A program made the translations under genes and the position numbers. A stretch of DNA of 9,713 nucleotides from a virus (taxonomy: Duplodnaviria > Heunggongvirae > Uroviricota > Caudoviricetes): IMG/VR virus record IMGVR_UViG_2737471860_000011, positions 1 through 9,713 of that record; one strand, given 5' to 3'. Below are positions 1 to 9,713 of this stretch, one piece after another (position 1 is the first letter of the stretch; every line of letters starts with the position of its first letter). The notes under the pieces are model-generated. The model worked only from the letters and a program-made list of their open reading frames with translations, had not been told where the DNA came from and did no database searches.

Positions 1-83
1 AGAAAAGTCAATGGGTTAGGTCATCGTGCAAATTTGCACTATGCCAGCCAACGCAATTTTGCGTTATCGGGAATATCAGCAAG

Positions 84-365
84 TTACCGCCGCAGTCGTT
101 CCGGCTTCTTCCACTGGTAAGTATTTTTCGCGCTCTCCCTCCGTTGTTGAGAACGGCGACGGTATGCCAGCAACTCAAGGACTCTGGTTCGTATGTTGCG
201 CATATCCACGCCGTTAAGCTCAATACCGTCACGGCGCATCACCTCAGCAACAACACGCGCGTAATTTTCGGCTGTCACGCTGTCCGGCTGTGTGGCCTGT
301 TCGTCATGCTGCTGGCTGATTCCGGTAACGCGGCGGATTAATCCCAGTAGTTCGGCTTCTGTCAT
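84..365 (-). CDS. Hypothetical protein (93 aa), function unknown
   Basis: ATG at 365-363 preceded by GGGGG Shine-Dalgarno 4 nt upstream; TAA stop at 86-84. Lies immediately outside the cosQ side of the left cos copy. No family recognised. Confidence 0.45.
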   Translation of the reverse strand: MTEAELLGLIRRVTGISQQHDEQATQPDSVTAENYARVVAEVMRRDGIELNGVDMRNIRTRVLELLAYRRRSQQRRESAKNTYQWKKPERLRR

Positions 366-397
366 TGTGCCCCCATCGCTCTGATAGTCTGGTGTCG

Positions 398-465
398 TCG
401 GGTCCTTCCTGGAATTATGGCCCGTTACGGGGCGGCGACCTCGCGGTTTTTCGCTATTTATGAGC
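398..465 (+). other. Lambda-type cos site, copy L (cosQ-like, cosN 430-441, start of cosB), plus orientation
   Basis: Contains GGGTCCTT...GTTACG followed by GGGCGGCGACCT and CGCGGTTTTTCGCTATTTATGA. This matches the phage lambda genome ends (right end ...GGTTACG, left end GGGCGGCGACCTCGCGGGTTTTCGCTATTTATGA) as recalled from memory. Confidence 0.75.
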
Positions 466-658
466 TTTTTTAGAGGGAGGTTGTTGTTTAATTGTTTGTC
501 ATATCCATTTGATAACTAAGTAAAAATAAAGAGCAATACAACAACCTGATAGTGTTTTTTTGATGCTAAAAATAAAAAAATGCTAATTGAATCAAATAGT
601 TTTAAAAAAATACGTGGTTGTTGTATTGCGTATTTGATGGCGTAACAGAAAGTGATTT

Positions 659-1099
659 TTAACTTTGCTGTTCTGTAACGACTGATTGTTCCATGCTGGC
701 ACGGCGAACGCTTACGGCATGACGCCACCCAGCCAGAAAGCCAGCCATTTTATTTCGTGCCTTGCTCACATCTTCCGGTGAATAGCCGTAAATCTGCAAA
801 CCTTCATCAAATCGATGTTCTGTTTCTTCACTGGAGTACTCGTCACGCTCAGATGAAAGCAGCCTGGCAAACATAATTTTTTCCAGCGCACTGGTTTCTA
901 CGTGATATCTGATGGCCTCAAGACGGCTTTTACCTGAAGACCAAAGCAATGTATGCCCGATGTGATAACCGCCAGACTTTCCGCGATCCGCATTAAGATA
1001 CGGCATCCCCTGTTTGGTCCATGCGCGAATAGTGGTTCTGTTAACCTTGAAATGTTCAGCTATTTCCTGCTGACTTACAAAACAAGCTTTATCAATCAT
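659..1099 (-). CDS. Terminase small subunit Nu1-like protein / candidate PICI Rpp-type packaging-redirection protein (146 aa)
   Basis: N-terminus SQQEIAEHFKVNRTTIRAWTKQGMPYL parallels lambda Nu1 KKQLADIFGASIRTIQNWQEQGMPV (winged HTH). ATG at 1099-1097 with AAGGT Shine-Dalgarno; start lies about 90 bp downstream of cosN copy R in the lambda cos-to-Nu1 arrangement. Confidence 0.8.
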   Translation of the reverse strand: MIDKACFVSQQEIAEHFKVNRTTIRAWTKQGMPYLNADRGKSGGYHIGHTLLWSSGKSRLEAIRYHVETSALEKIMFARLLSSERDEYSSEETEHRFDEGLQIYGYSPEDVSKARNKMAGFLAGWRHAVSVRRASMEQSVVTEQQS

Positions 1100-1165
1100 A
1101 ATGTTACCTTAACTGCATGGTTAAATATTAATCAAGTGGTGGTGGTGTCACCTTCACGGAAAAAC

Positions 1166-1233
1166 GTCATAAATAGCGAAAAACCGCGAGGTCGCCGCCC
1201 CGTAACGGGTCCATATGCCGGAAAGGACCCGCA
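1166..1233 (-). other. Lambda-type cos site, copy R (cosN 1189-1200 on minus strand), canonical position upstream of the Nu1-like gene
   Basis: Reverse complement reads GGGTCCTTTCCGG...CCCGTTACG, GGGCGGCGACCT, CGCGGTTTTTCGCTATTTATGA. About 90% identical to copy L in inverted orientation; cosN 12-mer identical to lambda. Confidence 0.8.
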
Positions 1234-1254
1234 AAAAAGCCGGATTTCTCCGGC
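1233..1254 (-). terminator. Rho-independent terminator ending the capsid-module transcript
   Basis: Minus strand reads GCCGGAGAAATCCGGC (6-bp stem, 4-nt loop) followed by TTTTTT. Located 7 nt after the stop of the 137-aa gene. Confidence 0.6.
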
Positions 1255-1260
1255 CTTGTC

Positions 1261-1674
1261 TCAGATGGTTTTCAGTATGCGATCAATGTCGCCGTCATCG
1301 CCCGGGTTTCTGCCATCGTATGCCATGCCAGCTGATACGGCTTGTGGGCTGTGCATGTCCATAAAGTTTTCAAAGGCTGCGGTAAGCTCTGGTGCAACCT
1401 TCTGGCGTTCCTGCTCTATGGTCATGTTCAGGATGTTTTTAGCCGTATCAACATCAATACAAGGCACGTTTGCCATTGCACGTAACAGCGGCTGATAGTC
1501 GTCAGATTCATGAAGCGACATAATCGCATCAGCGCGCGGCTTGTCCTGTTCTTCCAGTTTGTTAAGTTGATATATAGCTTCGTAGGTTGATAGACATCTG
1601 TCAGCCATTGCCCGCGCTTCAGCTTTAAATTTACTCGCCAGCGGTAGCGCCATGATACTTTCATTCGTTGCCAT
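1261..1674 (-). CDS. Hypothetical protein (137 aa) in capsid module; possible assembly or scaffold-like factor
   Basis: ATG at 1674-1672 with GGTGGA Shine-Dalgarno, 13 nt after the gpD-like stop. The track ORF 1261..1785 extends upstream across the gpD-like gene and is probably an over-extension. Acidic, helical-looking sequence; no family recognised. Confidence 0.55.
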   Translation of the reverse strand: MATNESIMALPLASKFKAEARAMADRCLSTYEAIYQLNKLEEQDKPRADAIMSLHESDDYQPLLRAMANVPCIDVDTAKNILNMTIEQERQKVAPELTAAFENFMDMHSPQAVSAGMAYDGRNPGDDGDIDRILKTI

Positions 1675-1687
1675 CGTTCCACCCTGC

Positions 1688-2023
1688 TTATCGCGCCAGC
1701 GGCTGAACAGATACACCAGAACCCGCAAAGGCGGCGCATTTTTTCGCGTCAGTGTCGGCGCTCTCAGGCCAGTTAACGGCGGCAATATTGAATATCCCCG
1801 TCTTGTAACACTGTGCTGACTTCTGCTTTGACGTGTCCACGGGGTACGAAGTCAGATAAACAGCCTTGCCAGATTCCTGACCATCCCACGGCTTAAACTC
1901 GCCATTGTCCGCCAGCATCAGCGGGGTAAATTCCTGAATAACGCCAGCATCAGCGGCAAAATGTACCAGTGTCGTGGATACCTGCTGACTGCCTGCAAAT
2001 AACTCAATGTATGGAGTGTCCAT
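1688..2023 (-). CDS. Head decoration protein, lambda gpD-like (111 aa)
   Basis: TPLMLADNGEFKPWDG and YKTGIFNIAAVNWPESADTDAKKCAAFAGSGVSV parallel lambda gpD TPLMLDTSSRKLVAWDG and [35 protein letters not shown]. ATG at 2023 with GGGGGA Shine-Dalgarno, 11 nt after capsid stop. Confidence 0.85.
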   Translation of the reverse strand: MDTPYIELFAGSQQVSTTLVHFAADAGVIQEFTPLMLADNGEFKPWDGQESGKAVYLTSYPVDTSKQKSAQCYKTGIFNIAAVNWPESADTDAKKCAAFAGSGVSVQPLAR

Positions 2024-2034
2024 AGAATCCCCCG

Positions 2035-3090
2035 TTAACCAATTTTGACGGTAACAAATTTGCGAATATCTGCCGGAACCGGCTGCGGTGCGCTGTGTGT
2101 CTGCACGTACTCAATCGCCGGATCGCCGTCCTCAATCCAGTTTTTCGGGTAGTACATGTTTTGCGTTGCGCCCGTTCTTACAGCTTCCTGATCCATAATC
2201 GCACCATAGGCCACCAGACCTTTGTTGTTGGTGTTGCCCAGGACCAGTAAATCAGGCTCAAGGAAATATTTTTCGGTGCCGTCGCTGTCAGTGTATTTGC
2301 CGGAATAGACGATAAGGGCAATATCGCCCAGATAGCCTTTAAAGCTCACCACTTCGCCCAGGTTTTTACAGGCCAGTTCTGCGGCGGATTCTGAACCACG
2401 GGAAAGATCGTACAGTTCGCGGAATTTTTTAAAGCTGCGTAACGTTCGCCATACCTCAGCGCCCATAATCATGACGTTGGCGGGGCAACCTGCTTGATCT
2501 GCGTATAGTTCGATATCATAGATTGGATCATGGGTTTCTTTGTCCTGCTCTGACCATTTACGGCCTTTGGCCTGCTCTATGATGTTTTTTTCCGGTATCT
2601 TCCAGTCGATTTCATAGCGTTCTATGCCTTCGCCCTCAATGATGTTTTTTCCGGTCGTTACCGCATTCACCGCCAGCCATTCCACGCGTGCCTTAATGGC
2701 GTTTATCTGGCGGCGCATGTTGCCAGTAATCAGGCGCATACGTCGGTAGGTAGGATCGTTAAGCTGTGCCGGATCTTCTCCAGCCATGCGCATGATGGTT
2801 TTTGTTGGATCGATTTCGTGCTTTGGCTTCATGTAGCCAGGTTTAATCGTGCTGGTTTCGTACCCTTTATCGCGCTGTACCTGGCTACCCACCATAGGCG
2901 AACAAAACGCAGACATGGTAACTTCTTCGGTATCCAGGTTATCCAGCATGATGTTTTGCGTGTTGAATGTCGCTACTTTCGGGAAAAACAGCGACGTAAA
3001 CAGTGGACTGAATTTAAATTCCGAAATATCCCCGCGATTCAGGTATCTGAAAAGCTGGTTAGTGTTAAGTGCCGTTGCTTTGCCTGTCAT
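2035..3090 (-). CDS. Major capsid protein, lambda gpE family (351 aa)
   Basis: KFSPLFTSLFFP, KPGYMKPKHEIDP, DPTYRRMRLITGNMRRQ and C-terminal YPKNWIEDGDPA match lambda gpE (KFDPLFLRLFFR, TPGYVKPKHEVNP, DPAYRRRRIIMQNMRDE, YPKNWVTTGDPA). Strong GGAGGTG Shine-Dalgarno 4 nt before ATG at 3090. Confidence 0.9.
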   Translation of the reverse strand: MTGKATALNTNQLFRYLNRGDISEFKFSPLFTSLFFPKVATFNTQNIMLDNLDTEEVTMSAFCSPMVGSQVQRDKGYETSTIKPGYMKPKHEIDPTKTIMRMAGEDPAQLNDPTYRRMRLITGNMRRQINAIKARVEWLAVNAVTTGKNIIEGEGIERYEIDWKIPEKNIIEQAKGRKWSEQDKETHDPIYDIELYADQAGCPANVMIMGAEVWRTLRSFKKFRELYDLSRGSESAAELACKNLGEVVSFKGYLGDIALIVYSGKYTDSDGTEKYFLEPDLLVLGNTNNKGLVAYGAIMDQEAVRTGATQNMYYPKNWIEDGDPAIEYVQTHSAPQPVPADIRKFVTVKIG

Positions 3091-3296
3091 TATTCACCTC
3101 CATGAGTCTGATTCATGCCCAGCGCCGCACGTAAATAGGCGCGTACCTGCCAGCCTGTTGACGGCTCAACCATCGCCAGCGGCTCAAGTCCTGCCGCAAT
3201 GCCTGCTTTTACGTTCTGCTGGTGGCGTTCCTTGAGCGCCTCCACGATGTCTGGGCTTATGTAAACTGTCACCCCGCCTTTTTTCTCTTCTGCCAT
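3090..3296 (-). CDS. Hypothetical small protein (68 aa) translationally coupled to the major capsid gene
   Basis: ATG at 3296 with AGAGGA Shine-Dalgarno about 10 nt upstream; its TAA stop overlaps the capsid ATG (TAATG). The track ORF begins at a GTG (3329) inside the promoter palindrome, which is less likely. Function unknown. Confidence 0.45.
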   Translation of the reverse strand: MAEEKKGGVTVYISPDIVEALKERHQQNVKAGIAAGLEPLAMVEPSTGWQVRAYLRAALGMNQTHGGE

Positions 3297-3324
3297 AGTC
3301 GGAAATTCCTCTTTGACGTTAAAA

Positions 3325-3380
3325 ATCACAACTGGATGTTCATCCAGTTGTGATTATAATCATGATTTCATTTTACGCAA
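3325..3380 (-). promoter_or_regulatory. Candidate sigma70 promoter of the capsid module overlapped by a 30-bp perfect palindrome operator
   Basis: Minus strand: -35 TTGCGT (3380-3375), 16-bp spacer, -10 TATAAT (3358-3353). Palindrome ATCACAACTGGATG-tt-CATCCAGTTGTGAT (3325-3354) abuts the -10 and covers the predicted start site; its core is CTG-N10-CAG. Confidence 0.5.
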
Positions 3381-3465
3381 TAATGTTTGGTTGTGTTGCA
3401 AATTGTGAAATGATTTGCGGCAACAGTAGTCACCATACTGTTAGATAAAAGCCTCATATGCAAAA

Positions 3466-3502
3466 GCCCGATAAGACCCTCTGACCTTATCGGGCTTTTT
3501 TT
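3466..3502 (+). terminator. Strong rho-independent terminator (bidirectional potential) between SSB and capsid modules
   Basis: GCCCGATAAG / CTTATCGGGC 10-bp stem with 10-nt loop followed by TTTTTTT on the plus strand; preceded by AAAA, giving a 4-U tail on the minus strand. Confidence 0.65.
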
Positions 3503-3509
3503 GGGGCAT

Positions 3510-3531
3510 AAAAAAGCCGAACTTCTCCGGC
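3510..3531 (-). terminator. Rho-independent terminator after the SSB gene
   Basis: Minus strand GCCGGAGAAGTTCGGC (imperfect stem) followed by TTTTTT. About 20 of 22 nt identical to the terminator at 1233-1254. Confidence 0.5.
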
Positions 3532-3547
3532 TTCTGTTACTCATTGC

Positions 3548-3970
3548 TTAAAACGGTATGTTATCCCCGTACGGATCATCGTTACCCGCCTGTTGTTTTG
3601 CCCTGTTCAGTGCGTCAGTAGCCTGGCCCTGTTGACCTTTTTTGCCGCCCAGTCGCGCCGTTCGCGCACTGATTACACTGTCTGCGATAACCTGCCAGCC
3701 CTGCCGCGTTTCTCCGTTCTGCCCAGTCCACTGGCTGATCTGCATGTTACCCGCCACGCTCAGGAGTTCACCCTTGCGGTGCCTTTCCAGTGCTTCGGCC
3801 TGTCTGCCAAATGCCAGGACGGATAACCACATCGTCGCCGTTCCGTCATCTGCCTGGCTGCACGGAAGGGGGACCGCCATACGCGCCAGCGTCATCGGTG
3901 TGCCCTTGCTGGTGGTCTTTAACTGCTGGTCAGCCACCAGCCGCCCGTAAGCCGCTATCTGTGCTGTCAT
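3548..3970 (-). CDS. ssb: Single-stranded DNA-binding protein (SSB) homolog (140 aa)
   Basis: OB-fold signature WLSVLAFGRQAEALERHRKGE...QWTGQNGETRQGWQV parallels E. coli SSB [21 protein letters not shown]...KWTDQSGQDRYTTEV. Gly/Gln-rich linker and C-terminal tail ending DNIPF (E. coli SSB ends DDDIPF). ATG at 3970. Confidence 0.8.
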   Translation of the reverse strand: MTAQIAAYGRLVADQQLKTTSKGTPMTLARMAVPLPCSQADDGTATMWLSVLAFGRQAEALERHRKGELLSVAGNMQISQWTGQNGETRQGWQVIADSVISARTARLGGKKGQQGQATDALNRAKQQAGNDDPYGDNIPF

Positions 3971-4033
3971 GCTGTCTGTTCTCCGGTTTTAACGTTGATA
4001 GTTACGCTTGTTTACACCCTTACGGTGAAATTC

Positions 4034-4158
4034 TGCGGGTTATAATCGCACTTTTGCGGGTTATAACTGCCATTTTGCGGGTTACGTGCGGGTTATTGAT
4101 TTCCTTTTTATTCATACAGTTAATTCACTTATACACAGGATAACCCGCATAACCCGCA
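4034..4158. repeat. Iteron array, putative replication origin
   Basis: Direct repeats of TGCGGGTTAT/C at 4034-4043, 4055-4064, 4076-4085 (21-bp phasing) and 4087-4096; AT-rich spacer 4097-4139; two inverted copies ATAACCCGCA at 4140-4149 and 4149-4158. Immediately 3' of the primase-helicase gene. Confidence 0.7.
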
Positions 4159-4181
4159 ACTTTTCACCTCACACAGGGTAG

Positions 4182-6305
4182 TTAATCTTCTGCCTCAGGC
4201 TGGAACATCATCACGTAAAAAACATGCTGCTTACCCCCAATTTTGCCGAGCGCCTTTTTCTTGTAACGGCGATCGTTACCCGCTTCCAGCATTCCGGCAG
4301 CACTCAACGCGCGGGCAAAGTGAGACGGATTAAATCCCTGTGCTATCTCACCCTCAAACACATGAGGAAACGTGTAAAAACGGAACTCATCATCTTCATT
4401 TCTGATACTCCCCTTTCTGTATCCGGCAAGGTCTTTAATCGGTAAATCACGCTCATCACTGTTTGGGTAAGGAAGGTATCGACTGAACCCGAACGACGAC
4501 AAAAACGCCTCAGCCTGTTCAACCATCTGTTTAAATTCCCTGTTACCCGTGCCGAACTCCTTCACCCAGGCATTAAAGTTATGCTGTATTGCGTCCCGGC
4601 ATTCCTGCGCGGCCCAGCCAGTTACATGACCGGAAAGCACAAGCGCAGCCTCCAGTATGGCGAAACGCTCCCCCACGCGGTGGACCTGCTCGCCGTAGCT
4701 ATCCGGTATCAGGTTGCGCCACCGTTCGCGGCATTCCCTTACCGTATCCTTTGCCTCCTGCTGGTGGTCTGCCAGCCATTTAACCCATTCACGACCCGCC
4801 GCCCCGTGATTTTCTGTCCAGGCATCTTTTAACGCGTCTGCGTGCGCCTTTCCGGTGCTGTATTCGTGAAATTGCGTGGCTTTTTCCATCGGAACGTTAA
4901 GCAGGCGGACAAGCTGCCCCGCTTTGACTTTTATCCCCTCCGTTTTGAGGAATGTCTCAACGTCCATTTCTCCGGTGCTGATTGCCACCGTGCGCCAGTG
5001 TTTTATCTCCCGGTTGCCGCCGTCCTTCGCCCCCTGTAATTTCCCGGAGCCGTTAAACAACGTATAGGCTGACGTGGACACCTCCCGCGCGTTTCCGGCC
5101 TGACCTATTTCATCCAGGGGTAACAGCCCGTCGTTGTGTGCCTCTGCCTCGTTGGCGATACCTAACGCCGTTCCGTACCAAGTAAGCCGTTGTGCGTCCG
5201 GCTCTCCCCATAAACTTGATGCGATGTTCTGCGTGGTGGTTTTCCCTGCCGATGACTGTTCGAAAAGATGTACCCCGAAGCCGTCAGCACCAACAAGGCC
5301 AATCAAAGGTGCTGCCAGTGACGTGGCAACACCCAGCATCATGGACGGATTGCCACCAGCCAGCCGCGCCACGCTGTCACGCCAGCCCTCCGCCGTACCC
5401 GCAACCGAATAGCCATTAACAGCGGCACTTTTTCCGGTAAACAGGATCGGTTTTTCAGAATCACCAATGATTGAACCGTCCGGCATGATGTACGCGCCAA
5501 AATGCCAGCCCGTTGTTGTGCTTAACTGCCATTCCTCATGGCTTCCGCTTAACTGCATCCAGTCAGCCAGGATAGCCCTGTATTTGCCGTTTGTTGTCAC
5601 ATTCAGCCCGTGATCTTTAAGCAACCGCCAGCCGTCACGGTCGCCAATGCCACCACACGGGATCGCCATTGTGATGACTTCATGGTTTGCTAATTTTTTC
5701 CAGCGCATCACGCGGTAATGCTCTTTACCGATCGTCCCCGTTCCCAGTAGTTCAAGCGGAGAACATAACCACGTCTCAGGCCGGATAATTTCGCCTGACT
5801 GCTTATCCACTTTGGGCGTTACCCAGAAAACACCATCGACGCGACTTTCAACGCGGGGCTTTAATTCATCATCCTGATAGCATGGCTCTTTTTTCTTTAC
5901 AGGCAGTTCAACTACCTTTTTCTTTTCCGCCAGCTCTCCCCGCTCACGCTCCAGATATTCGCGCCAGTTCTCCCGTTTCTGGCTGTGCATTCCTTCAGGG
6001 TAATAATCAGCATCCCTGACACCTGCCGCTGCCAGTTTCTGCCCGATGGTATTAACAAGCCCCGGACGCAATAACCCCGCCTGATAGAGACGCACGCGAT
6101 AGCGTCCGTCCGGTACGATTTGCAGGTTGTCCAGTTCGACAAGTTGTTGCTCTCCAAGCCAGACAGGTGGCACGTTATCGCCAGCCAGTCGCCCGTCCTG
6201 TTCCTGCCACTGTTTCGCATGTGCCCACGCATCACTACCCGCAAAAATGATGACTTCCGTCATTTTGTCACGCGGCTGGTGTTTTAAATTTGGCGCTTTT
6301 TTCAT
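4182..6305 (-). CDS. Replication initiator, fused primase-helicase (P4 alpha-like / DUF927-type, Pri-Rep), about 707 aa
   Basis: Large ORF with a P-loop-like motif (FEQSSAGKTT); position downstream of AlpA and directly upstream of the iteron array. Preferred start is the ATG at 6305 with GGAGAG Shine-Dalgarno, rather than the upstream GTG at 6320. ATG overlaps the stop of the preceding ORF (ATGA). Family assignment is from overall resemblance and context, not a domain search. Confidence 0.8.
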   Translation of the reverse strand: MKKAPNLKHQPRDKMTEVIIFAGSDAWAHAKQWQEQDGRLAGDNVPPVWLGEQQLVELDNLQIVPDGRYRVRLYQAGLLRPGLVNTIGQKLAAAGVRDADYYPEGMHSQKRENWREYLERERGELAEKKKVVELPVKKKEPCYQDDELKPRVESRVDGVFWVTPKVDKQSGEIIRPETWLCSPLELLGTGTIGKEHYRVMRWKKLANHEVITMAIPCGGIGDRDGWRLLKDHGLNVTTNGKYRAILADWMQLSGSHEEWQLSTTTGWHFGAYIMPDGSIIGDSEKPILFTGKSAAVNGYSVAGTAEGWRDSVARLAGGNPSMMLGVATSLAAPLIGLVGADGFGVHLFEQSSAGKTTTQNIASSLWGEPDAQRLTWYGTALGIANEAEAHNDGLLPLDEIGQAGNAREVSTSAYTLFNGSGKLQGAKDGGNREIKHWRTVAISTGEMDVETFLKTEGIKVKAGQLVRLLNVPMEKATQFHEYSTGKAHADALKDAWTENHGAAGREWVKWLADHQQEAKDTVRECRERWRNLIPDSYGEQVHRVGERFAILEAALVLSGHVTGWAAQECRDAIQHNFNAWVKEFGTGNREFKQMVEQAEAFLSSFGFSRYLPYPNSDERDLPIKDLAGYRKGSIRNEDDEFRFYTFPHVFEGEIAQGFNPSHFARALSAAGMLEAGNDRRYKKKALGKIGGKQHVFYVMMFQPEAED

Positions 6306-6601
6306 TTCTGCTCTCTCCACGCGGCAATCATGTTTTTCAGTTCCTGTAGTTTTTTATCCACATCCACACGTGACACATGGTTATTTCTGGAAGTCGGGAT
6401 TTCCCGCCGGAATCTACAAATAAAGATCTCCACGTTCAGCGAACTAAGAAATGAATAGCCATCACGGATAAAATACACACGGTCAAACATCAGTTCTTTT
6501 ACCGTTACTCTGTTACCGTTCTTATCCAGATAAATAGCGCCGGGGATAATTTTGGGGTGTGCATAACCGCTGGCAGTCAAGCCAGATAAATACGTTCTCA
6601 T
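6302..6601 (-). CDS. Hypothetical protein (99 aa), translationally coupled to primase-helicase
   Basis: ATG at 6601 with GGGGA Shine-Dalgarno; TGA stop overlaps the primase ATG. About 38% GC in a sampled 100-bp stretch, lower than the primase gene. No family recognised. Confidence 0.55.
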   Translation of the reverse strand: MRTYLSGLTASGYAHPKIIPGAIYLDKNGNRVTVKELMFDRVYFIRDGYSFLSSLNVEIFICRFRREIPTSRNNHVSRVDVDKKLQELKNMIAAWREQK

Positions 6602-6607
6602 GATTAC

Positions 6608-6928
6608 TTATCCCCGATTTGAATCAGTATTCGCTTTCTTTATGGCATTTAACGCATCTGTGGCATTTTCAATGGTGCACCGTAACGAAATATCAAACTG
6701 CCCAAGCATTGTCAGTAACAAACCGATATTCCCCATGTCAATGCGCATAGCCTTTTCGTCATATTCCTTATTTTCTGACGCATACCACATCAGGCTACCA
6801 ATTGACGCAACAGCCATTGATATATTGTCAGTAGCCGCATCCGCAGCAGAATAAACCTTTTTAGCAATATCATGCTCACAGTTAAAATGCGGATTAATCA
6901 GGTACTGGTAATTTGACATATCAGGCAT
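6608..6928 (-). CDS. Hypothetical protein (106 aa)
   Basis: ATG at 6928 with GGGGG Shine-Dalgarno; 6-nt gap to the next gene. Low-GC like its neighbour. No family recognised. Confidence 0.55.
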   Translation of the reverse strand: MPDMSNYQYLINPHFNCEHDIAKKVYSAADAATDNISMAVASIGSLMWYASENKEYDEKAMRIDMGNIGLLLTMLGQFDISLRCTIENATDALNAIKKANTDSNRG

Positions 6929-7124
6929 GGCACACCCCCTGACGAATACGGGCAGCGAATACCATCACGCAGCCAGCCGGGGATTGCTGGCGTGCTTCCT
7001 GTTCGCTGCTGGCCTCAATGGTAATCACGCGCGGTTGTGCCGTACTCAGGGCGATAAAACGCCAGATGTATTTATTCAGGTTGTGCGAGTCCAGCCCTTG
7101 CGGGTGTGTGGTATGATTTCTCAT
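6921..7124 (-). CDS. Hypothetical small protein (67 aa), first gene of the replication operon
   Basis: ATG at 7124 with GAGGT Shine-Dalgarno 5 nt upstream; 8-nt overlap with the next gene start. The track ORF 6921..7862 (313 aa) is rejected as one CDS; only the 3' 68 codons have a ribosome-binding site and sit downstream of the promoter. Confidence 0.4.
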   Translation of the reverse strand: MRNHTTHPQGLDSHNLNKYIWRFIALSTAQPRVITIEASSEQEARQQSPAGCVMVFAARIRQGVCHA

Positions 7125-7222
7125 AGCTACCTCGATACTCTTGCTATCGTTGGTGGTTAGACGCCCTGCATGTGTTGCGAGCACTGCGGGGCGTTGCTTA
7201 ATTTGAGTGACAAAACTCAAAC

Positions 7223-7302
7223 TGTGCGCACAGATTAAAATCATGTGTGCGCACATGTCAATACTTAACATCTCATTTTTTTTGCTGTATTGTGTGCGCC
7301 CA
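7223..7302. promoter_or_regulatory. Divergent promoter region with three operator palindromes (TGTGCGCACA)
   Basis: Perfect 10-bp palindrome at 7223-7232 and 7246-7255; one-mismatch copy TGTGCGCCCA at 7293-7302. Minus-strand promoter: -35 TTGACA (7261-7256), 16-bp spacer containing O2, -10 TTTAAT (7239-7234), with O1 at about +1. Plus-strand promoter: -35 TTAACA (7265-7270), 17 bp, -10 TATTGT (7288-7293), with O3 over -10/+1. Confidence 0.6.
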
Positions 7303-7329
7303 TAAAGTCCATTTAAGTGAGGTGCATCA

Positions 7330-7527
7330 ATGTCTAGCGGTAACACAAACAACAAATCAGCAAAGAAAAATATTCGATTCCCACATGAGCTTATAGATGG
7401 GATTGATGCCAGCGTTGAACAAGAAAAATTAACTAATCCTAGTGCTAATTTTTCCGCATGGGTCTTAGATGCCTGTGGACGCAAATTAAAATATGAACAG
7501 CGCCGGAAGGCCAAAGAATCAGAATAA
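7330..7527 (+). CDS. Arc/Mnt-like ribbon-helix-helix transcriptional regulator (65 aa), candidate repressor of the replication operon
   Basis: NIRFPHELIDGIDASVEQE...NFSAWVLDACGRKL parallels P22 Arc NLRWPREVLDLVRKVAEENGRSVNSEIYQRVMESF (beta-strand then two helices). GAGGTG Shine-Dalgarno 6 nt before ATG; divergent from the operon across the operator palindromes. Confidence 0.65.
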   Translation: MSSGNTNNKSAKKNIRFPHELIDGIDASVEQEKLTNPSANFSAWVLDACGRKLKYEQRRKAKESE

Positions 7528-7584
7528 TCACTATCAGCGCCGTGGTGTGAGTAACTACGGCGCATTGCTATGCAGGACAACACA

Positions 7585-7758
7585 ATGACCGATAAAGAAT
7601 TGACCAAAACATTATCACCGGCACGGAAAAGACGGCGCAGAAAGATAGAGCATGAATCAGAAAGATTCGCACCTTGTTCGTTTGCTCTTGAGAAATTCCT
7701 TAAAGAGCACAGGAAAAAGCTCTCGTTGCAAACCTTGGGACGAACCAAATCTGACTGA
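7585..7758 (+). CDS. Hypothetical small arginine-rich protein (57 aa from ATG 7585; track ORF starts at 7570)
   Basis: AGGA about 8 nt before ATG 7585; contains ARKRRRRK. Sits between the RHH gene and a plus-strand terminator. Weak support overall. Confidence 0.3.
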   Translation: MTDKELTKTLSPARKRRRRKIEHESERFAPCSFALEKFLKEHRKKLSLQTLGRTKSD

Positions 7759-7825
7759 TCACATTGCCCACCAGCCGCAAATGTGGCATTGTTGGTGATG
7801 CGTTCAAGTTTAGTGTGTATCCATT

Positions 7826-7851
7826 GGCGACCGCCCCCGGTCGCCTTTGTT
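7826..7851 (+). terminator. Rho-independent terminator of the plus-strand regulatory transcript
   Basis: GGCGACC gccccc GGTCGCC hairpin followed by TTTGTTATATAT on the plus strand; no U-tract on the minus strand. Confidence 0.6.
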
Positions 7852-7872
7852 ATATATGTCATATGCTCCCCT

Positions 7873-8082
7873 TTACGCTGCCTTACCTGAATTAATGCGA
7901 TCCCGGCTTTTAACCCATTCCATAACCTCGGACAGCAGCCAACCTACAGAACGCCCACCAAGATTACGGCGAGACGGAAAGCTCCCTTTTTTCTCCAGTT
8001 CGTAGCGTGTAGTGCGACACACTCCAGTTAACTTACGACATTCATCCTCACGGATTACGCGATCTTCATTTATTTCACGCAT
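7873..8082 (-). CDS. alpA: AlpA / P4 Vis-family transcriptional regulator (69 aa; track ORF extends to a GTG at 8169)
   Basis: ECRKLTGVCRTTRYELEKKGSFPSRRNLGGRSVGWLLSEVMEWV matches the AlpA pattern (HTH, then KxGxFP...LGGRSV.W...E...W). ATG at 8082 with AGGT Shine-Dalgarno; adjacent to and co-directional with the integrase. Confidence 0.8.
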   Translation of the reverse strand: MREINEDRVIREDECRKLTGVCRTTRYELEKKGSFPSRRNLGGRSVGWLLSEVMEWVKSRDRINSGKAA

Positions 8083-8474
8083 ACAAAAACCTACATAAAA
8101 ATTACGTATATAAACTTTTCTCTTAGCTGTAGATATATGAGATCGGATATTACTTAGATTCTTTTTCACCTCTTAAATTAAAAACACAACCATGCTAAAG
8201 GCTTTGTTCGCTAAGGTTCGTAGAAGCTCGTTAGTGTTTAAAATCGTGTCACGAGTTTTTAAGCGACGCAACAAAAAAATGTCTTCATTTTGCATGACAC
8301 TTGAATTATCTCATTAAAAACAAATAGATAAACCATCAAGTGTTGGAACAATCAAGAAACAGAGAATAAAAACCCAGAAGACGACATTCCAATTAAGATA
8401 TTTGCAGATATTTTCCGATATTCTACGATTTATTCACGGCTGTAATCTCTTAAAGAAAAAACAGCCGTAATTTG

Positions 8475-9713
8475 TCAATAATTTTGGGTGTAAATTCGCG
8501 GGGTCATAACAACGATTTTTTCATCATTGTTCTGGAGAAGCTCGAGACGGTCTACCCATAGATTAAGAGCGTCACGCTTTGCATCGAGATAACGGGAGTG
8601 GTTATAGACGCGTTGCATTCCTGGCATCTGGTGGGCAGTAAGCTGTTCGACAATATGCGGATCCACGCCTAAATCGTTCAGCATGGTTGTAAATGTGTGC
8701 CGGATGTCGTGCAACGACCAGGGGGCTTGATTAATGCGTCTGTGTGCCGTTCTTCCGTACTCTGCTACGGATGATTGCCCTTTCAGTTCTCCAAGCAATA
8801 AGCCCGTGTGCCTGTTCTGCTCCACCAGCTTCATGACGAACGGCAAGATCGCTTCCGGTATTGGCCTGAATATTGCTACCTTCGTTTTGCTGTGTTCTTT
8901 CGGCACAGTCCAGAGCATTTCTTTAAAATCCCATTCCCGAACCTCGGAGCGTCTTAGCTCAGTGGTACGGCATCCGAAGACAATCAGAAGGCGAATTAAA
9001 GCGCTGTAGTACGGCGGGAAAATTTTTTCATCCAGTGCGCGGAGTAGCTCGCCAAGCTCCTTGTTTGTTAGCACTCGCTCGCTTATTTCTGCTTTTTTTC
9101 CCACATCACCTACGACCATATCATCAAGAACGTTACTGACGGCGTAGCGACGTTTACGGCAGTACTTAAGCGCCTGTTTGCATACCTGCAACAAAAAGCC
9201 GGCTGATACCGGATTACGCTTAGCAAGCTGGTCAAAACAGGCCAGCCAGTGGCGTAGCTCGCATTTATCCAGCGGCATAGCACCAATCTGGCTGATTATG
9301 TGCTTATTGATACGGCTTTTCAGTGATTCGTGGTCAGTGCGCTTTTCCTTCGCATACGACTCAAGCCAGTAAGTGAGCGCGTCCTTAACCGTCACGGGGG
9401 CTAACGCTTCCTGCACTGTGTGATTAAGCTCATGGCGTGGATTTTTCCCCTCCGCCAGCCAGGCGCGACACTGTGCCGCTTTTTCCCTGGCTGCTTTCAG
9501 GCTCAGATCGGGATAGTTGCCCAGTCTCAGGCGTTCCGGTGATACCTGCCTGCCAGTTCCGGCCCTGTAAGTGAAATACCAGGTTAACAGGCCGCTAGTG
9601 GAATGTCTTACGCTAAGATTGCCACCGTCATTAAAAAAGGCGTTTTTTGTGGTTGGTGATCCGCTTAATTTTCGTAAAAGAGTGTCGCTAAGTCTATGAA
9701 TTGCGCTGCTCAT
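8475..9713 (-). CDS. int: Site-specific tyrosine recombinase, P4-type integrase (412 aa; start codon is the last 3 nt of the window, possibly 5'-incomplete)
   Basis: N-terminal LSDT...DGGNLSV...YFTYR...LGNYPDLSLKAAR parallels the CP4-57 IntA N-domain. C-terminal catalytic signature HDIRHTF (H-x-x-R) and VYNHSRY (tyrosine nucleophile). Confidence 0.9.
   Translation of the reverse strand: MSSAIHRLSDTLLRKLSGSPTTKNAFFNDGGNLSVRHSTSGLLTWYFTYRAGTGRQVSPERLRLGNYPDLSLKAAREKAAQCRAWLAEGKNPRHELNHTVQEALAPVTVKDALTYWLESYAKEKRTDHESLKSRINKHIISQIGAMPLDKCELRHWLACFDQLAKRNPVSAGFLLQVCKQALKYCRKRRYAVSNVLDDMVVGDVGKKAEISERVLTNKELGELLRALDEKIFPPYYSALIRLLIVFGCRTTELRRSEVREWDFKEMLWTVPKEHSKTKVAIFRPIPEAILPFVMKLVEQNRHTGLLLGELKGQSSVAEYGRTAHRRINQAPWSLHDIRHTFTTMLNDLGVDPHIVEQLTAHQMPGMQRVYNHSRYLDAKRDALNLWVDRLELLQNNDEKIVVMTPRIYTQNY

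Follow-up and report, generated by a model that had tools for sequence, protein, structure and literature searches.

The stretch of DNA analysed here, IMG/VR virus record IMGVR_UViG_2737471860_000011 (Caudoviricetes; positions 1 to 9,713, hereafter "the window" at its full length of 9,713 nucleotides), is a close relative of EcCICFT073 and, like it, a Gram-negative phage-inducible chromosomal island (PICI). The explanation that we consider probable is that this island is controlled by the product of a small divergent gene, ylcI, a predicted ribbon-helix-helix (RHH) repressor of the DUF3950 (YlcI/YnfO) family, which would act on three operators carried with its gene in an exchangeable cassette, and by an additional layer, a predicted cis-antisense RNA covering the replication operon's leader. 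About one in three complete E. coli genomes carries a Gram-negative PICI, as judged from the matches of a 1-kb query around the cassette; these islands move virulence and defence genes, and the published model of their regulation comprises an activator, AlpA, and no repressor. The first-pass annotation of the window had pointed out that these islands are generally described as lacking a dedicated repressor, which agrees with their founding study (Fillol-Salom et al. 2018, PMC6092414), where AlpA is an activator and it is left unclear whether a global repressor exists.

Operators and promoters of the control region

The palindrome TGTGCGCACA occurs exactly at positions 7223-7232 and 7246-7255, and a version with one mismatch, TGTGCGCCCA, is present at 7293-7302, so that the two exact and one imperfect palindromes of the first-pass annotation are all found; no further copy of TGTGCGCACA with at most one mismatch exists anywhere in the 9.7-kb window. 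Considered as 12-mers, these sequences constitute the putative operators O2 (CTGTGCGCACAG, 7222-7233), O1 (GTGTGCGCACAT, 7245-7256) and O3 (GTGTGCGCCCAT, 7292-7303, with one mismatch in the core).

The sites are distributed over two promoters arranged back to back, with only 3 bp between their -35 hexamers. The promoter of the replication operon, whose first gene is Icd-like, occupies 7232-7261 on the minus strand, with the -35 TTGACA at 7261-7256 and the -10 read either as TTTAAT (7239-7234, 16-bp spacer), as originally proposed, or as TAATCT (7237-7232, 18-bp spacer). The former reads directly in the sequence and is an equally good match within the window itself; the latter, 2 nt downstream, is the -10 conserved in the family. 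This promoter is absent from the consensus scanner's list, since the scanner demands A at the second position of the -10. The promoter of ylcI, which the scanner does report, lies at 7265-7293 on the plus strand (TTAACA at 7265-7270, 17 bp, TATTGT at 7288-7293). With either choice of the -10 of the operon promoter, O1 fills the spacer and abuts the -35, and O2 covers the edge of the -10 and the start site, i.e. one palindrome is in the spacer and another at about +1, as had been claimed. O3 covers the last two bases of the ylcI -10 together with the start site, again in accord with the earlier placement of the imperfect copy, and is presumed to be autoregulatory. The positions of the operators on both promoters are those of repression, not of activation.

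The O1 palindrome followed by ATTTTAAT (7242-7257, minus strand) was also flagged as terminator-like. Such a structure could stop transcripts reading through from alpA just before the operon, in those cassette types only that possess a true palindrome.

Conservation of the architecture

Homologues with flanking regions were collected from 38 genome loci (one genome per species, with Escherichia at one end of the range and Orbus and Gilliamella at the other), from viral contigs (52 loci) and from metagenomes (50 loci), about 140 in total. The operators were extracted by anchoring on the codons of the IRFP motif of YlcI, and entries with weak three-site scores were excluded from the statistics. 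In nearly all loci the O1 12-mer abuts TGTCAA, the -35 of the divergent promoter, and O2 is found 23 bp beyond O1; in most loci O3 is located 46-47 bp to the other side of O1, directly after a conserved TATdGT that corresponds to the ylcI -10. O3 is usually the most degenerate of the three copies. On the minus strand the consensus of 46 loci reads TTGACG-O1-N5-TAAgGT, where the final GT opens O2, followed by the rest of O2. The -10 conserved in the family has a spacer of 18 bp and overlaps O2 by 2 nt, and it reads TAAKGT in the relatives and TAATCT in the window.

The outer GTG...CAC of the operators is widely kept, and the inner bases vary between loci while agreeing within a locus. The identity of the 12-mers amounts to 80% within a locus vs 60% between loci, and for the central 6 bp the difference is larger (73% within vs 46% between).

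These comparisons bear on the simplest alternative, namely that the palindromes are fortuitous or non-regulatory, e.g. restriction-type palindromes or recombination scars. The expected number of matches with at most one mismatch in the whole window is 0.59, and three matches were reached by 3 of 200 shuffles of the window, which is what can be said for it. Among 3000 first-order Markov sequences, however, 20 had a 10-bp palindrome repeated exactly within 60 bp and 0 of the 3000 added a third copy (at most one mismatch) within 100 bp, so the observed cluster is not reproduced, and the positions on the promoters are conserved in about 140 loci, with coordinated changes of sequence. We give this alternative hardly any credence.

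The YlcI protein

The ylcI gene (7330-7527, plus strand) is preceded by GAGG 7 nt before the ATG and encodes a predicted RHH repressor of 65 aa. The protein belongs to the YlcI/YnfO family, with 28.3 bits for PF13132 (DUF3950; cut-off 25) and 59 bits for NF041551 (YlcI_YnfO_N; cut-off 30), and DUF3950 is matched by all 43 aligned homologues. Residues R16-F17-P18, F41-S42, W44-V45 and C49 are invariant among the homologues, and residues 11-14 (AKKN in the window) stand directly before the invariant I-R-F-P strand.

The layout of the protein, an N-terminal strand followed by two helices, can be superposed on solved RHH domains; in the AlphaFold2 model (mean predicted local distance difference test score, pLDDT, of 75) an extended N-terminus is followed by helices 19-35 and 41-63. 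Weak Pfam matches among the homologues include the RHH families Arc, NikA-like, CopG_antitoxin and RHH_1, as well as the HicB-like antitoxin family, which we take to carry an RHH domain too. In the hhalign comparison SAKKNIRFPHELIDGID is aligned with MPQFNLRWPREVLDLVR of Arc, which puts K12, N14 and R16 opposite Q9, N11 and R13, at a probability of ~5% over 17 columns. Q9, N11 and R13 are the base-contacting residues of Arc. The gene had been called Arc/Mnt-like; the RHH-like fold and the register of Arc support this description, but membership does not. The window protein has no match to Arc among the Arc/Mnt Pfam families (PF03869 and relatives), and among the 43 homologues one has an Arc match, at E = 0.009 and below threshold. 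YlcI is thus RHH-like with an Arc-like layout, and stands outside the Arc and Mnt families.

There is also a different reading, in which ylcI and the small open reading frame (ORF) that follows it, orf62 (7570-7758, plus strand; phrog_21027, E = 6e-14; probably co-transcribed with ylcI), form a type II toxin-antitoxin pair, with an RHH antitoxin and the palindromes as its autoregulatory operator. The presence of orf62 is compatible with it. Yet no downstream partner is conserved: an ORF of at least 40 aa follows ylcI in only 38 of 77 unique loci, these ORFs fall into small unrelated clusters, and orf62 itself does not travel with the module, being found among the genome loci only in the close E. 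coli relative. Moreover, two of the three sites are on the divergent promoter, and only ~10 residues follow helix 2 of YlcI, which leaves no toxin-binding tail. As no adjacent toxin gene is conserved, the pair was rejected as a type II toxin-antitoxin system, and we regard this reading as very improbable. The orf62 product is very basic, with a KRRRRK motif, and occurs in E. coli relatives only.

A YlcI/YnfO homologue was also observed in phage lambda, which is a helper of EcCICFT073. An unannotated protein of 64 aa (MSTKNRTRRTTTRNIRFPNQMIEQ..., 43% identical to the window protein) is encoded at 48112-48303 (complement) of J02459, ~200 bp from the right cos end, and the sequence upstream, ...CCACGTCAA..., recalls the O1/-35 junction of the islands. 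Similar homologues are present in 151 other records of lambdoid and Shiga toxin (Stx) phages.

Covariation of protein and operators, and exchange of the cassette

The four residues before IRFP (the arm) are associated with particular operators: AKKN with TGTGCGCACA, AKKH with GTGTGcACCCAC, TTKG with GTGCAyAwACAC, xYKG with GTGTTTAAACAC, QLKN with GTGTGTAGACAC, ATKG with GTGTTAGGGCAC, and KRKD with TGTCCGCACA. Operator distances correlate with the distances of residues 2-14 (r = 0.46; partial r = 0.47 given residues 19-58; p = 2e-4, Mantel test, n = 50 unique confidently parsed loci) and show no correlation with the remainder of the protein (partial r = -0.12, n = 50). The columns most strongly associated with the operator are 12, 5 and 11, and the helix columns are all at or below 0.17. 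The covarying residues are located in and before the strand, which lends indirect support to a predicted RHH dimer whose two-stranded antiparallel sheet would enter the major groove.

The same data speak to the possibility that the sites are bound by some other factor (AlpA, the Icd-like protein, the primase acting on iterons, or a protein of the host or the helper phage), while YlcI does something else. The Icd-like gene and the leader are likewise conserved neighbours in the module, the Icd-like family carries the PHROGs label "transcriptional repressor", and AlpA, a regulator that binds DNA, is a known activator of these islands. However, the Icd-like sequence is no guide to the type of operator (r = 0.08, partial r = -0.16, n = 29), and the association of arm and operator persists when the Icd-like protein is controlled for (partial r = 0.69, p = 2e-4, n = 29). 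The PHROGs label traces back to an obsolete annotation of a P4 cI protein and is for this reason probably misleading; P4 (8168-8584) is still annotated with a "cI gene product" protein, though its immunity is due to RNA. Some loci with the same operator have no detectable AlpA homologue or have unrelated primases, the fact that a single backbone in a single host species carries several operator types speaks against a host factor, and the sites are on promoter elements and not at an origin. Binding by another factor is in our opinion quite unlikely.

YlcI with its operators behaves as a unit of inheritance. The combination of the TGTGCGCACA operator and the AKKN arm is found also on unrelated backbones of Rahnella and Klebsiella (primase identity of 28-29% or no match), and the same E. 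coli backbone carries other YlcI variants with other operators. In EcCICFT073 a YlcI/YnfO gene (WP_000190587) is located between alpA and the Icd-like gene, and GGTGTGGCCCAC (twice) and CTGTCCCCCACC (once) take the same positions as the sites of the window. This gene (E. coli CFT073, NC_004431, 1,380,473-1,380,652) has the RefSeq tag C_RS30120, numbered far above its neighbours, which points to its addition during some later re-annotation, and it may thus have been absent from the gene maps of the original PICI papers.

On either side of the cassette the window is 93% (6934-7197) and 89% (7498-7801) identical to EcCICFT073, while the region between these flanks, 7198-7497, comprising the operators and YlcI residues 1-56, has no DNA similarity to it. 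This pattern bears the mark of an immunity cassette that has been exchanged. Of 5426 complete E. coli genomes, 69 carry the cassette type of the window. Judging from the sequences, the exchangeable cassette appears to unite the operators with that part of ylcI which encodes DNA binding, and to exist in at least ten specificity types; co-resident or incoming islands with different types would then be controlled independently. Thus, the operators overlap core promoter elements, and their specificity is co-inherited with the repressor gene, as in a repressor-operator system. The structural elements of the switch proposed in the first-pass annotation all hold, with sites fixed in about 140 loci, a sequence that covaries with the arm, and a cassette that is exchanged.

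A predicted cis-antisense RNA over the operon leader

The earlier reading did not include a further layer, which concerns the 5' leader of the operon (7125-7227, minus strand). This leader of ~100 nt, extending from O2 to the ATG of the Icd-like gene and including its ribosome-binding region, is conserved in all loci, with evident compensatory changes. We predict that it is the target of a cis-antisense RNA of ~80 nt (7124-7207, plus strand), which begins at the complement of the Icd-like start codon and consists of a 5' hairpin (7133-7149), a terminator hairpin (7161-7194) and a T-rich tail; the T-rich tract after the second hairpin is conserved in the family. The predicted promoter is an extended -10, TGgTATGAT (7109-7117, plus strand). 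In all 37 aligned loci the three specified bases of TAnnnT are unchanged (TATGAT at 7112-7117 and TG at 7109-7110 in the window), while the residues encoded opposite them vary (H, S, D, T), which indicates selection on the DNA and not on the protein.

The two-hairpin structure shows double (compensatory) changes at 14 of 17 pairs, a result that none of 500 shuffles and no slid control comes near. The helices are paired in 97.0% of cases if read on the plus strand, including ~40 G.U cells, vs 90.9% on the minus strand, where the same cells become A.C; this bias identifies the plus-strand, antisense RNA as the selected one. The predicted RNA contains a single-stranded UUGGUGGUUAG. In most relatives an anti-Shine-Dalgarno CCUC is in the loop of the 5' hairpin, and in the type present in the window the Shine-Dalgarno sequence follows that hairpin. 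A covariance model, R1, built from a seed of 37 loci, detects the RNA in 18 of the 20 further sources searched; 17 of these 18 lie outside the seed, and the four divergent E. coli types are included. Loci L140 and L141 were missed, and P4 gave no match.

No Rfam family exists for this RNA. The window scores 18.4 bits for the R1162 antisense RNA (RF00043; gathering threshold 55), and two relatives score 33-35 bits for SymR (RF01809; gathering threshold 61) on the plus strand, so that neither assignment applies. Immunity RNAs of the C4/CI/isrK type (RF01695, RF01394, RF03163) were sought since the first gene of the operon is Icd-like, and no match at E <= 1 was obtained in the window and seven relatives, with P4 as the positive control giving 74.9, 60.8 and 44.1 bits.

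An RHH regulator and a cis-antisense RNA standing together before replication genes resemble the CopG/RNAII pair of plasmid pMV158, and the whole could be a copy-number circuit of the plasmid type that acts only on the excised, replicating island and does not silence the integrated one. The sub-threshold likenesses to the R1162 antisense RNA and SymR agree with it, as does the ability of AlpA alone to induce EcCICFT073. On the other hand, the controlled operon also contains capsid-like and packaging genes, the many exchangeable specificities are more like immunity types than like copy control, and an own, divergent and autoregulated promoter suits steady expression from the integrated state; besides, roles in copy control and in quiescence do not exclude each other. 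We consider a circuit restricted to the excised island unlikely. On the evidence of sequence, our preferred reading includes a predicted, conserved cis-antisense RNA opposite the ribosome site of the first operon gene as a partner of the YlcI repressor in keeping the island silent.

A model of regulation

What we infer from these comparisons with respect to binding, repression, autoregulation, immunity, expression of the RNA and the route of induction can be put together as follows. YlcI dimers would read the operator with the N-terminal arm and the beta-strand (residues ~5-16) and bind the three 12-bp pseudo-palindromes. Occupied O1 and O2 would sandwich the -10 of a strong sigma-70 promoter, by which RNA polymerase would be blocked and the Icd-like/primase/capsid operon kept off. 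At higher concentrations of YlcI, O3, usually the weakest site, would be bound as well, limiting the divergent promoter of ylcI by negative autoregulation. A constitutive antisense RNA of ~80 nt may pair with the ribosome-binding region of the leader, thereby blocking translation of the Icd-like gene and damping leaky expression, and its transcription may also collide with that of the operon.

Induction of EcCICFT073 depends on AlpA, whose overexpression is enough by itself, and alpA is turned on by helper phages (PMC6092414); induction by a helper phage and transfer have been demonstrated in the literature for EcCICFT073 only. In the window alpA (Phage_AlpA in Pfam; 7873-8169, minus strand) is convergent with ylcI, an arrangement seen in 17 of the 38 genome loci, i.e. 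in every locus with an alpA match. An intrinsic-terminator-like hairpin at 7826-7855 (plus strand) ends the ylcI-orf62 transcript; its T tract is on the ylcI side, and none is present on the alpA (minus) side, with the equivalent hairpin of EcCICFT073 being likewise one-sided. The convergence, the one-sided T tract and the known role of AlpA make read-through the favoured candidate for induction: helper-induced, AlpA-dependent transcription may run convergently through ylcI into the operon, so that less repressor would be made and the repressed promoter bypassed. Alternatively, derepression might be brought about by anti-repressors encoded by the helper or by arrival in a new, repressor-free cell after transfer. 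It is also a possibility that helper phages such as lambda interfere by means of their own YlcI/YnfO homologue next to cos.

Several observations weigh against control by YlcI or against parts of it. The support for binding and repression comes from sequence comparison, not from expression data. Evidence for the RHH fold at the sequence level is weak (the ~5% hhalign probability mentioned above), searches of PDB sequences with the single protein and with a profile gave no usable match, the model has no Foldseek match at E <= 0.001, and in the AlphaFold2 monomer, with its mean pLDDT of 75, the strand is not formed. Some operator classes are clearly asymmetric (e.g. GTGTGCACCCAC), and in some loci O3 can be made out only with difficulty. 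The loci are kin by descent, hence the Mantel tests control for shared ancestry only in part. Finally, overexpression of AlpA alone induces EcCICFT073, from which it follows that a repressor must somehow be bypassed or overcome.

Taken to its full extent, the proposal would be that Gram-negative PICIs including EcCICFT073 are kept quiescent by a two-layer immunity cassette, composed of a DUF3950 RHH repressor with many interchangeable specificities and a new cis-antisense RNA, until helper-triggered, AlpA-dependent convergent transcription silences the repressor gene and reads into the replication operon. In this complete form we put it forward tentatively and regard it as rather doubtful.

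The island and its other features

The gene order on the minus strand, according to Pfam, NCBIfam and PHROGs, is int, alpA, the Icd-like gene, orf106, DUF4222, a DUF927 primase, SSB (single-stranded DNA-binding protein), and capsid-E-like, head-decoration-like, scaffold/protease-like and small-terminase-like genes. The int gene (8475-9713, minus strand) is upstream of alpA, and the Icd-like gene (6921-7124, minus strand; 67 aa, 69.6 bits for NCBIfam phage_ICD_like) is the first of the controlled operon. A near-identical 10-kb island is inserted between clpS and cspD in E. coli STN0717-20, and the late region of the window (663-3532) is 94% identical to that of EcCICFT073, the prototype Gram-negative PICI of strain CFT073. 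It is from this gene order, the STN0717-20 island and the identity to EcCICFT073 that the window is assigned to Gram-negative PICIs of the EcCICFT073 type, which possess int, alpA, a primase-based replication module, a small late/packaging module, a length of ~10 kb and a chromosomal att site. A 1-kb query (6900-7900) has matches in 1807 of 5426 complete E. coli genomes, at up to 6 places per genome.

Since the capsid-E-like, decoration-like, scaffold/protease-like and small-terminase-like genes make up this late region (663-3532, minus strand) shared with EcCICFT073, the "classical" PICI lineage carries head genes of the lambda type. A strong hairpin with a U tract at 3439-3503 (plus strand) has a sub-threshold match to NsiR1 (E = 0.28). 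Most likely this is no more than a terminator; it falls between the SSB gene and the gene at 3090-3329, neither of which is encoded on its strand.

A spurious ORF of 313 aa (6921-7862, minus strand) runs antisense through ylcI and orf62, and partial pseudogenes called "hypothetical" or "Icd-like" are annotated there by RefSeq (loci L001 and L142-L144). The sole Icd-like match within this long ORF is the real gene at its end, and the translation of 7125-7862 (minus strand) has no match to any family, so the pseudogene calls look like artefacts of the long ORF. The Rfam int-alpA motif (RF02996, 43.5 bits, threshold 35.8) was detected between int and alpA in a Xenorhabdus relative (locus L029, 4331-4399, minus strand), with no match in the window.

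Comparison with known systems

Regulation is treated in different ways in the papers on these islands. A preprint on capsid-forming PICIs (cf-PICIs) discusses induction via AlpA only, and a description of the islands as four zones (integration, Bro, replication, late) names as regulators only Bro proteins and C4/isrK RNAs (PMC10111431); in the study of EcCIMP1 a PerC/ANR-like repressor acts on virulence genes of the host and not on the island. In the searchable literature, whose coverage is incomplete, we found no functional description of an RHH repressor or of AlpA antitermination in PICIs, no antisense RNA described in Gram-negative PICIs, and no description of a function for YlcI, YnfO or DUF3950.

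If the reading with YlcI as the repressor is true, it would provide a function for a DUF that is also present in lambda and in K-12 prophages, name the missing repressor of the model island EcCICFT073, predict the residues of operator specificity, offer a set of small orthogonal repressor/operator pairs, and add an RNA layer linking these islands to the immunity systems of P1, P4 and P22. By analogy, the kind of system predicted here, with an RHH repressor, operators and an antisense RNA, is well known, P22 immI and pMV158 being examples; what seems to be new, within the literature as searched, is the protein family, the controlled island family, the specificity cassettes and the RNA.

The immI region of P22 encodes the RHH repressors Mnt and Arc, with the divergent promoters Pant and Pmnt and the sar antisense RNA. 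It shares with the window a small RHH repressor divergent from the strong promoter that it represses via core-promoter operators (repression being predicted in our case), autoregulation of the repressor (again predicted), a short cis-antisense RNA over the ribosome site of the downstream gene, and a strand that aligns in register with that of Arc (hhalign). In contrast, YlcI is outside the Arc/Mnt Pfam families, the island has three separate 12-bp sites instead of single operators of 17-21 bp, the operon contains satellite Icd-like, primase and capsid-like genes and not an antirepressor, and many exchangeable specificities exist.

In plasmids, rep genes are controlled by CopG and RNAII (pMV158) and by a countertranscript (IncQ plasmids R1162/RSF1010). 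The predicted joint action of an RHH transcriptional repressor and an antisense RNA on replication genes is similar, and the leader motif CUAACCACCAAC, the Shine-Dalgarno-bearing hairpin and AUGGCU resemble the Rfam consensus for R1162, although the score of 18.4 bits vs 55 is far below threshold and the strand to which that model belongs is uncertain. The copG gene of pMV158 shares an operon with repB instead of diverging from it, and the element considered here is an integrative satellite, not a plasmid.

With the CI RNA of P4 and c4-icd-ant of P1 the island has in common an operon starting with an Icd-like gene homologous to the "cI ORF" region of P4, and a control exerted at the RNA level on the leader, predicted in our case; orf106 has the same length as orf106 of P4 (106 aa), a likeness by length alone. 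However, the window and seven relatives have no match to the Rfam models C4, isrK and c4-a1b1 (P4 gives 75 and 61 bits), model R1 has no match in P4, the predicted RNA is a cis-antisense transcript and not a processed leader fragment, and a protein repressor is added.

The lambdoid immunity regions (imm434, imm21, the tripartite OR) resemble the system in that repressor and operators are swapped as a cassette between homologous genomes, and in having three graded sites with the weakest on the promoter of the repressor itself. They differ in that their repressors are helix-turn-helix proteins and not RHH proteins; the island has no Cro-like partner and no RecA-cleavable domain, and its sites are 12 bp long, spaced by 23 and 46-47 bp.

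Stl of the Staphylococcus aureus pathogenicity islands (SaPIs) and Rpr of Gram-positive PICIs are comparable in the presumed role, that of a divergent repressor holding the replication/packaging operon off in the integrated state (PMC6092414). Stl and Rpr are, however, larger helix-turn-helix proteins removed by proteins of the helper phage, whereas YlcI is an RHH protein of 65 aa with no obvious sensor domain; induction of Gram-negative PICIs goes through AlpA, and int and alpA of the window are not co-oriented with the repressor gene.

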